This document shows positions 7,701 through 10,700 of a stretch of 64,000 nt of DNA, in pieces. The notes beneath the pieces are model-generated. The model saw only the letters and a list, made by a program, of their open reading frames with translations. It did not search any database and was not told the DNA's origin. The translations under genes were made by a program, and so were the position numbers. Position 1 is the stretch's first letter. Each line of letters starts with the position of its first letter. Origin of the DNA: Chrysomallon squamiferum (lineage: Eukaryota; Animalia; Mollusca); assembly GCA_012295275.1 (NCBI GenBank), contig CM022671.1, forward strand, positions 28,954,001 through 29,018,000. The letters are read 5' to 3'.

Positions 7701-10700
7701 TTTGTACATACTAATATACAAACATATGCACAAACAGATTTAGACAGATATGCATATTCTGATGTTTCTTCACCATATTAGTTGGGAATCTTTTATATTC
7801 TCTTCATAATTTAATCTTTTTTTATTTTTAAGCTGGAGGAACTGAAACTGTTGCTAAGCAACAGAAAGATGGTAGTTACCATCTCTATGGTTACAAGTGG
7901 TTTTCCTCAGCAAATGATTCTAATATGTCATTCACTTTAGCTCGTCCTCTAGATAATAATGGAAACACAATAAAGGTGGGTTCACAGTGTTTAATTTTTA
8001 AATATCCTTAGTTTCACTGTGAATAGTTTTTATAGTTTATAGGTTTCAGATATCATTACCTGATTTTTACATGAGTTTAGATTTAAATTCTGATTATTTA
8101 ACAACATAGTATTTGTTGCCTGTGGGATAATTATATTGTTAAATTTATATTAAAGTGTATAAAAATGTTATTGAATAATGTATATTATACATACATATAT
8201 ACATATATACATATATATATATATATATATATATATATATATATATATATATATATATATATATACATATATATATATAAATCTCTGTGTCATGCCTCTG
8301 TTTTCCTCTCTCTCTCCCTCACTCACACACACATACAGACATTTCTCTTTCATATGTTTACCCCTCTGTCACTCTGTCTAAATATACAAAAAAACACATA
8401 CAAAAGGCAATGGTGGGATATGTAATTCCATACAATTTAAATTAACCTTATTCAAAATACAGGTGTATATTTTATATATATATATAATACCAGCTAGATC
8501 ATGATTTATGACACAGGGAACAAAAGGTCTGTCTTTGTTTTATTTGGAAGTGTATGATGAGGATGGGAGGCTGAACAACATTGAAGTACAGAAACTGAAA
8601 AACAAACTGGGAACCAGACAGCTGCCCACTGCTGAGTTGTTACTTGATGGAACTAAAGCTTTCAAGGTAACATATAACATTGTTAAATTCTTATTTGTTA
8701 AAAGTTGCTCCCAAGATATTTTGCATTTTGCAGTTTTGCAAAAAAACATAGCATACAGAACACACACATACATACATATTGAGCTGTTCGAAATTTCACA
8801 TACAATTTCAGTGCTTATTTATGAAAAGCTGTGGCATGTGTTTTTCTGCCTGTGGGAAAATGCATTTAAAATATTTCAAAGTTATTGATTAGATTAGTTC
8901 AGTGCATGTCACCTTCACCTATTTTAAACAAAGCAACAAAAACATTTTTTTACTTAACTTCTCACAGTCAGAAAAATATATATATTACCACAGCCTTTAT
9001 TTTATTAGACTGGGAATTAAAATCCACTATGATGTATTGTTGCCCATCCAGCAGTCCATTGTTCCTCAGACAGTTATTCTGAAACTACAGCATTCTTTCT
9101 GGTATTCTGTTATCATAAATTCTTGTCTTGCTGTTTGTTGAAAGGTGTTGCTGTTAAAACTGATTTCAACGTTGTAGGTGTGTAAACGCTGTTGTACAAA
9201 ACATGTTTCTAAACAGGTGTCCGAGGACGGCCGTGGTGTTGCCTCCATTTCTGACATGTTGAAACTGACACGAATATACAATACAACATCAGCAGCAGCA
9301 GCAATGAGAAGGTGATGACTGAAGAATCAGACACAAATTTCCCTCTCTTTTTTTTCATCTTTTTTTTTCTTCTATATTTGAAATTGCTTTTGACTGGGAT
9401 TACCCATTACTGCAGTACTACTCTGTGTTTCAAAATGAAGATACAGTGAGGCCTGTTGATTAAAAATATTTAAAAAAAAAATATTGTTCTTTCAGAATCT
9501 ACTAGCATCTGGCCATAAAATACACTGGAGTGTCAGTGCCTAATGCAGTTCTGATATAGCAGCAAGAAAGAGTCTATAAAAGCACTCTTTCTGCTGATTA
9601 AATCAGTATGCAGTAAACACAGGTTAACTTATACTGAAGCAGAACTTTCAAGAACTGGGACAGGTGTATATAAAATAAGAAGTAGTTTTAGTAGTATGGT
9701 TTTTTAAGAATAGACAATTTTTGATTGTTAGGTGTCTGAGGATGGGAGGGGTGTGGCCTCTATCGCCAATATGTTGACCCTGACCAGAGTACATAACACA
9801 GTGTTTGCTTCATCTCACATGAGAAGGTTTGCAAATACTGATCTTTCTCATGTCTGTGAATTAATAAATAAATAAATAAATAAATAAATAAATATGTAAA
9901 TAAATAAATAAATATGTGAATAAATAAGTAATTAAATAAACATGTAAATAACATTCTGAATGAATAAATATGTGAATAAAAAAATATTTAAATAAATAAG
10001 TGAATGAATAAATAAATAACAAATATGTGAATGAATAAATAATTAATAAATTAATAAGTGAATTTCTAAATAAATAAATAAATAAATATCTGAATAAATA
10101 AATAAGAAATAAGTAAGTAAATAAATAAGAAATAAGTAAGTAAATAAATAAGTAAATAAATGTAAATATATACATTAATAAATAAATAAGCATGGAATAA
10201 TGAACTAAATAAATAAAACTGATAAATAAATATATTAATAAATATATAAATGAAGAAAACAGTTAATTAATAAGTATATGTATACTTTCAGGATGGTGAA
10301 TTTAGCCAGAGATTACAGTACAAGGAGAAAAGCTTTTGGAAATGTGTTGAAAAACCATGCTCTTCATGTGCAGACACTGGCTAGAATGGAGGTCAGTTTA
10401 TCAGGACAATGACCATTATTAGTAATGACCATTTACTTTTACATAATTTAATATTTAGTAAGTTATGATTGTATATCTCTCTCTCACACATACACAAAAA
10501 TAAAATAAATAAAAGAAAATATTTTTTAAATTTTCTTTTGCCACCTGTGTGATATTTCTGTGAATTGGGAATGTGTGTCTGTGTGTATATGTGTGGGTGC
10601 ATGTACATGTGCTTTTTTGGTGTATGAAAGAACATATACTAATTTTATAAAATACCTGAAACTGTTTGTCTATTGTATGTTCAGGTATTTTATTGATAAA

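Follow-up and report, generated by a model that had tools for sequence, protein, structure and literature searches.

Background

The acyl-CoA-oxidising flavoprotein ACOX1 (peroxisomal acyl-CoA oxidase 1) is made as two isoforms of the same size through mutually exclusive duplicated exons, 3a and 3b, with ACOX1a reported to peak at C10-CoA and ACOX1b at C16-CoA (available text of PMC11178532; PMC12318918). The two exons described here, 7a and 7b of a gene of Chrysomallon squamiferum, probably share this arrangement, but ACOX1 belongs to another family and swaps another exon, and the shift in substrate measured there is predicted for 7a and 7b. The ACOX1 pair is conserved from zebrafish to human in the accounts available, whereas exon 7 has a single version in the vertebrate clusters that we compared. 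A second parallel is coq-2, in which mutually exclusive homologous exons (6a and 6e) remodel the core of an enzyme and switch its substrate in helminths, annelids and molluscs; the available text of that report leaves open whether the switch is ancient or arose repeatedly, and states an independent origin for the mutually exclusive exons of mrp-1 (PMC7434440). It differs from our case in that the enzyme is unrelated and the function of its exons has genetic proof, and in that the distribution of exon 7 includes echinoderms. Convergent duplication of exons has been described as a class of event, in which, according to the available text, the copies keep their ligand-binding residues as a rule (PMC9741552). 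For Pseudomonas FadE1 and FadE2, bulk at tunnel positions, which we map to helix G, is reported to set the preferred chain length, as we propose for 7a and 7b (available text of PMC11890623), but these are two genes, about 20% identical to the ACDH-11-type family, and not splice forms.

The closest sequence and fold matches to the present gene are C. elegans ACDH-11 (4Y9J), whose structure was solved with C11-CoA, and Bdellovibrio Bd2924 (6SD8/6SDA), solved with C10-CoA. ACDH-11 has been described as sequestering C11/C12 chains (PMC4741542) and was later tied to bacterial cyclopropyl fatty acids (available text of PMC10876521); its fat-7/NHR-49 role comes from work on the nematode protein. No dehydrogenase activity was detected in Bd2924 by those who solved its structure, who also report that related divergent ACADs lack significant activity (PMC6851490), so proteins of this kind may bind more than they oxidise. 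We found no alternative helix-G exon in the literature for ACDH-11 or Bd2924. The preliminary description of this locus knew of no account of an exon swap in the ACDH-11/AidB family, and our literature search likewise found no report of an ACDH-11-type alternative exon among the matches listed, as judged from titles and the starts of abstracts (genome-wide tables of mutually exclusive exons in supplements could list one).

Results

An ACDH-11/AidB-type gene with a helix-G exon

The window analysed, a stretch of 64,000 nucleotides, carries on its forward strand a gene at 4560..13471 with 13 exons per message, canonical splice sites and a product of 621 amino acids. The splice model places exons 1 to 5 at 4560-4787, 5430-5662, 6132-6231, 6889-7012 and 7833-7975. 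Exon 6 (8517-8666), which encodes the end of the beta-sheet domain and matches 4Y9J residues 248-294, and exon 8 (10292-10391) are constitutive and flank the alternative pair; the remaining exons lie at 10910-11050, 11355-11447, 12194-12461, 12780-12846 and 13348 to the stop codon, all on the forward strand. Several introns hold repeats: about 98 degenerate AATA units at 9859-10251 take up most of the intron that follows 7b, and minisatellites lie at 6293-6561 (68 nt x 4) and 7221-7392 (43 nt x 4). The first 22 residues (4560-4625) include four basic and no acidic ones and look like a mitochondrial-targeting segment. A different gene with the same orientation ends some 2.3 kb upstream of the start codon; its final exons lie at 808-2254 and encode an acidic C-terminus.

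The nearest named protein is P0001 of Gigantopelta aegis, with 47 of 50 residues of exon 6 identical and 491 (7a form) or 488 (7b form) of 621 residues identical over the full protein (79%). P0001 has the AidB_N, middle, C-terminal and ACDH-11_C domains, all four above cut-off, and exon sequence at 12194-12460 of the Chrysomallon gene itself matches PF22217 (E 1e-13). By sequence, the best structure matches of P0001 are ACDH-11 4Y9J (E 4e-167) and Bd2924 (3e-133). Its predicted fold (pLDDT 88), which here stands for that of the 79%-identical Chrysomallon protein, ranks 4Y9J, 6SD8 and AidB first, with a TM score of 0.88 to 4Y9J. The catalytic Glu that follows the gating Trp is kept, as Trp474-Glu475 in the Chrysomallon splice model, and the equivalent pair in Bd2924 is Trp428-Glu429 (PMC6851490). 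Domains, closest matches in sequence and fold, and the Trp-Glu motif agree with the family proposed in the preliminary description: by homology, the gene is an ACDH-11/AidB-type acyl-CoA dehydrogenase, for which binding of FAD and of medium-chain acyl-CoA and assembly as a tetramer are predicted.

Exon 7 covers residues 327-358 of P0001, where the Pfam C-terminal domain starts at 331 and a long helix is predicted at 338-367, and it aligns without gaps to 4Y9J 299-329 and 6SD8 285-312. As modelled, exon 7 is the exon that encodes helix G of the acyl-CoA dehydrogenase fold, which was the preliminary assignment; we take its conserved TR to be MCAD T255-R256.

Two copies of exon 7, one per message

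Two copies of this exon lie next to each other on the forward strand: 7a at 9217-9311 and 7b at 9732-9826, each 95 nt long, in phase 0-2, with AG before and GT after. Adjacent, equal in length and phase and with intact splice sites, they are built as expected of mutually exclusive exons that arose by tandem duplication. The copies are identical at 63 of 95 nucleotides and 21 of 31 residues, and their first 11 codons differ by seven synonymous changes. On all of these points, from coordinates and peptides to the recounted identities, the preliminary description proved accurate. A helix-G exon profile run over six frames of the window found exactly two copies (E 4e-18 and 7e-18) and no third, the next match having an E of 4.6.

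Either copy alone gives an open 621-residue protein in the 13-exon model (4560-13471). Including both creates a TGA at 9775, inside 7b, and including neither a TAG at 10382, in exon 8, the same stops that had been foreseen from the letters; because double inclusion and double skipping both end the protein early, use of one copy out of two is enforced by the frame. How the choice is made is less apparent. The 420-nt spacer between 7a and 7b is too long for steric exclusion, which is therefore disfavoured, and no convincing docking or selector RNA pairing was found among 106 inverted repeats, of which the 25 examined were mostly AT-rich and none was accepted.

By Nei-Gojobori counts, synonymous change between the copies far exceeds amino-acid change: pS is 0.71, for a dS of about 2.2, which approaches saturation, and pN is 0.21, for a dN of about 0.25. 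In all of 2000 codon bootstraps pN was smaller than pS. With synonymous sites so close to saturated and so little change in the protein, the duplication is old and stayed under constraint for most of its history, in line with the earlier view that both copies are constrained. The same divergence bears on the idea that the second copy is artefactual, a product of assembly or haplotypes, or else a recent duplication that is neutral. That idea can draw on the window being rich in repeats and on a comparison confined to its 64 kb, but the exons share only 63 of 95 nucleotides, their flanking introns have no clear similarity (9/40 and 14/40 identical positions, ungapped), and RNA contigs match each copy at its own place. 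Sequence divergence and copy-specific contigs leave this reading extremely improbable, and we treat it as ruled out.

7b is the main form in the RNA sampled

We compared assembled contigs from four RNA runs of one study with positions 8500-9850 of the window; such contigs show presence and not absence, and exon 8 is seen through its first bases, as loose contig ends beyond 9850. Exon 6 is present in contigs of all four runs. The junctions from exon 6 to 7b (8666>9732) and from 7b to exon 8 (9826>10292) occur in four of four runs at contig depths of 12-31, and that from 7a to exon 8 (9311>10292) in one of four (X2, depth 5.9). These three had been proposed in the preliminary description; the fourth that it proposed, from exon 6 to 7a (8666>9217), was found in the contigs of none of the four runs. 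A 7a to 7b joint (9311>9732) was also in none, a result from contigs that cannot prove absence. In the RNA sampled, 7b is the main form, and the donor of 7a is functional.

The other contigs with 7a have a depth of 4-6 and extend into introns, and some from runs X1, X3 and X4 pass through 7a into both introns. One X1 contig holds a long form of 7a (9009..9311, forward strand) made from an upstream acceptor by a GT..AG joint, 8666>9009; this form is out of frame, with a stop after three codons, and the short side of the joint measures 22 letters. In run X2, record 6 contains a 167-nt loop (9145..9311, forward strand): the record is 197 nt long, or 167 plus 30, and returns from 9308 to 9142, with a joint for which the GT behind 9311 would be the donor and 9143-9144 supplies an AG acceptor. 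The loop looks like a back-spliced, circular RNA from 7a, though a 4-nt microhomology allows an artefact. In run X3, a variant at 9144 removes the acceptor AG of this loop.

These products raise the possibility that 7b took over and that 7a is a mostly unproductive recent relic or a dosage valve, its weak acceptor bypassed, so that the gene makes essentially one protein. The lack of 8666>9217 in the contigs of all four runs, the out-of-frame joint, the loop and the intron-running contigs all point that way, as does the pyrimidine share before 9217 (0.50, against 0.68 and 0.73 at the two acceptors upstream of it). However, the acceptor of 7b, which is used, is equally poor in pyrimidines (0.45), and contigs drop rare variants while assemblers tend to collapse alternatives of equal length. 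The frame of 7a is open, its splice sites are intact, and it is identical to the Gigantopelta exon at 24 of 31 residues, beside a gene-wide identity of 79%; every one of its residues is found in other members of the family. In one contig, the only variant inside 7a is synonymous, against six in 153 intron bases, counts too few for significance. We consider it unlikely that 7a is such a relic or valve, while allowing it some weight.

The swap changes residues mapped to the acyl tunnel

All ten residue differences between 7a and 7b fall within codons 12-31. They include Tyr/His at codon 21, Ser/Phe at codon 25 and Ala/His at codon 29 (7a/7b), and four of them (codons 12, 13, 16 and 20) lie toward the start of the helix. 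Codon 29 corresponds to Tyr326 in ACDH-11 and His309 in Bd2924 (chain numbering), and both proteins are like 7b at this position and unlike 7a. The tyrosine of ACDH-11 at this place was reportedly named by Ma et al. in 2015 as limiting the depth of the pocket. If Glu291 of LCAD is codon 18, a register that we assume, LCAD residues 294, 295, 298 and 302 are codons 21, 22, 25 and 29. These four helix-G residues are given as lining the cavity of LCAD in the available part of its report (PMC11153573). FadE2 Glu296 and Gln303 map to codons 18 and 25 (24 in the HMMER gapped alignment), given a two-residue numbering offset that we infer, these being the places where the mutant chain has two alanines seven residues apart; shrinking both together with Met130 gave a tunnel that admits C16-CoA (available text of PMC11890623). 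The differing residues thus map to acyl-tunnel positions in related structures (FadE2, LCAD, 4Y9J/6SD8), partly through inferred numbering, as the preliminary description expected of a pocket helix.

Side-chain volume summed over codons 25 and 29 is 178 in 7a, which equals the median for 153 segments; the 343 of 7b is reached by 5 of them. All eight within-gene exon pairs differ at codon 25, although they do not count as independent, and at codons 25/29 the genes with alternatives all have one smaller and one bulkier version. With small Ser25 and Ala29 set against bulky Phe25 and His29 at tunnel-mapped positions, 7a likely gives a deeper, open pocket and 7b a shallower, plugged one.

Lining positions as a class are not enriched for change, since three of the five mapped differ, compared with 10 of 20 positions across codons 12-31. 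Both isoforms might be made and yet differ in affinity for CoA or FAD, in stability or in tetramer packing, or hardly at all. The four differences toward the helix start would suit such an outcome. So would DmdC, in which residues three and four before the substrate-site Arg affect catalysis and not Km (available text of PMC6850173; DmdC was not aligned here), and the engineering of FadE, which needed a partner change on another helix, outside exon 7 (available text of PMC11890623). Set against this are the size changes themselves, which are largest at codons 25/29, and the smaller and bulkier versions kept there in every gene with alternatives. A difference of this other kind, or hardly any, strikes us as rather improbable.

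The same exon is swapped in database models of other animals

The preliminary description treated the swap as a feature of one gene, a view that the database does not bear out. Among 30 protein clusters compared, two large ones in part (15 of 123 and 15 of 87), four contain database models of same-length isoforms with adjacent accession numbers that differ only inside exon 7. They come from the clams Mercenaria (X1/X2, 13 residue differences) and Ruditapes (X1/X2, 13), the crinoid, or feather star, Anneissia (X2/X4, 14) and the sea urchin Lytechinus variegatus, which has three versions (X1/X2/X3; 9, 14 and 14 differences). In addition, three Mytilus gene models carry both exon copies in tandem. 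Alternative isoforms have therefore already been present in RefSeq, unremarked.

Elsewhere the exon is single: the vertebrate, amphioxus, oyster, scallop, coral and other gastropod clusters compared have one version per gene, as do 35 of 35 loci in a metagenome scan whose single seed pattern favours the ordinary type. No second copy was found in the six metagenome loci that span exons 6, 7 and 8 across introns. At loci L005 and L007 the donor after exon 7 is GC and not GT. Searched by region, the X2 exon of Mercenaria matched only two proteins. Variation at codon 25 among amphibians was considered as a sign of alternative exons and rejected, as it reflects species or paralogues instead.

Each gene with alternatives (Mercenaria, Ruditapes, Anneissia, Lytechinus, Mytilus) has one version with Ser18/Thr22/Met25. 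Over codons 17-31, these versions agree at 8-12 of 15 positions across lineages, compared with 5-8 of 15 with their own partners. The same three residues occur in a protein of the brachiopod Lingula and in a fragment with sponge-like flanks (P0354). For Diadema (P0022, P0311, P0312) and Lingula (P0062) only a bulky version is annotated (Ser18/Thr22 with Phe25 or Met25), and an unannotated partner exon may exist in both. A 93-residue fragment (P0349) holds a full exon-7 peptide, ten residues and then a partial second copy, possibly a tandem duplication.

The Chrysomallon pair probably arose separately

Neither Chrysomallon exon has the Ser18/Thr22/Met25 combination: codons 18/22/25 read Thr/Asn/Ser in 7a and Thr/Asn/Phe in 7b. 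Over codons 17-31, 7b has 4-6 of 15 positions in common with exons of that type and 6-10 with those of the ordinary type, and the order of the copies, small first and bulky second, is the opposite of that in Mytilus. Because the residues of the bivalve and echinoderm version are lacking, the Chrysomallon pair probably arose separately from that alternative exon, to judge from these comparisons.

Exon trees were built from 31 columns, too few to fix the origin, and the Ser18/Thr22/Met25 group was named after the sequences had been seen. In a tree of 46 rows the group forms one branch (support 95/93). With 33 rows and a simpler model, after 13 rows were dropped, including the long branches Diadema and Dimorphilus, it mixes with ordinary-type exons of urchins (88/83). 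An AU test with 7b placed inside the group gave p 0.40, and of the six arrangements tested in this way only a grouping of every echinoderm copy was rejected, by a narrow margin (p 0.04).

Besides the identical residues already counted, 7a and the Gigantopelta exon have in common a rare Thr24 (4 of 146 segments). 7b is more unusual: among 146 distinct homologous segments its Phe25 occurs in six and its His29 in none, and His at codon 29 was likewise absent among the matches listed in a profile search of 1.84 billion representatives (150 matches, 147 with the exon). By residue identity, the annotated Gigantopelta exon is likely orthologous to 7a, which is also likely to be the older copy in the Chrysomallon lineage, with 7b derived.

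Discussion

The exon pair is real, and a spread across phyla that is wider than one gene has apparently gone undescribed; the functional difference between the versions is predicted from sequence. We think it probable, with moderate confidence, that one gene makes two versions of an acyl-CoA-binding flavoprotein that would differ in pocket depth, through use of one of two helix-G exons. Only messages with exactly one copy would keep the frame, and those with both or neither would presumably be cleared by nonsense-mediated decay, which the 95-nt length fits. Inclusion of 7a, with Ser25 and Ala29, would leave room in the acyl tunnel for chains that are longer or bulkier, and inclusion of 7b, with Phe25 and His29, would plug it toward medium chains such as the C10-C12 ligands of Bd2924 and ACDH-11. 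The presumably derived 7b would then have become the main form in the RNA sampled, and the helix-G exon may have been a repeated target of duplication. A choice between the copies by tissue or temperature, which the preliminary description raised as a possibility, is conjecture.

A broader proposal, which we advance tentatively and hold to be somewhat less than an even bet, is that animal ACDH-11-type proteins have in helix G a pocket module that is switched by splicing. An open version and a plugged Ser18/Thr22/Met25-type version would have existed as a pair since the protostome-deuterostome ancestor, or have re-evolved several times; the pair would have been lost in vertebrates and many snails, and re-invented here with Phe25/His29. 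Each such gene might then serve two classes of fatty acid, possibly bacterial cyclopropyl or branched ones and ordinary ones.

The substrate of animal ACDH-11-type proteins is unsettled, with C11/C12 chains, cyclopropyl fatty acids and little dehydrogenase activity all on record. Isoform pairs that occur naturally in at least three lineages, and whose only difference lies in the pocket helix, offer ready controls in a search for the ligands and for the residues that choose among them. The exon would also bring a metabolic enzyme into the small set of genes in which the same exon has been duplicated repeatedly across phyla.
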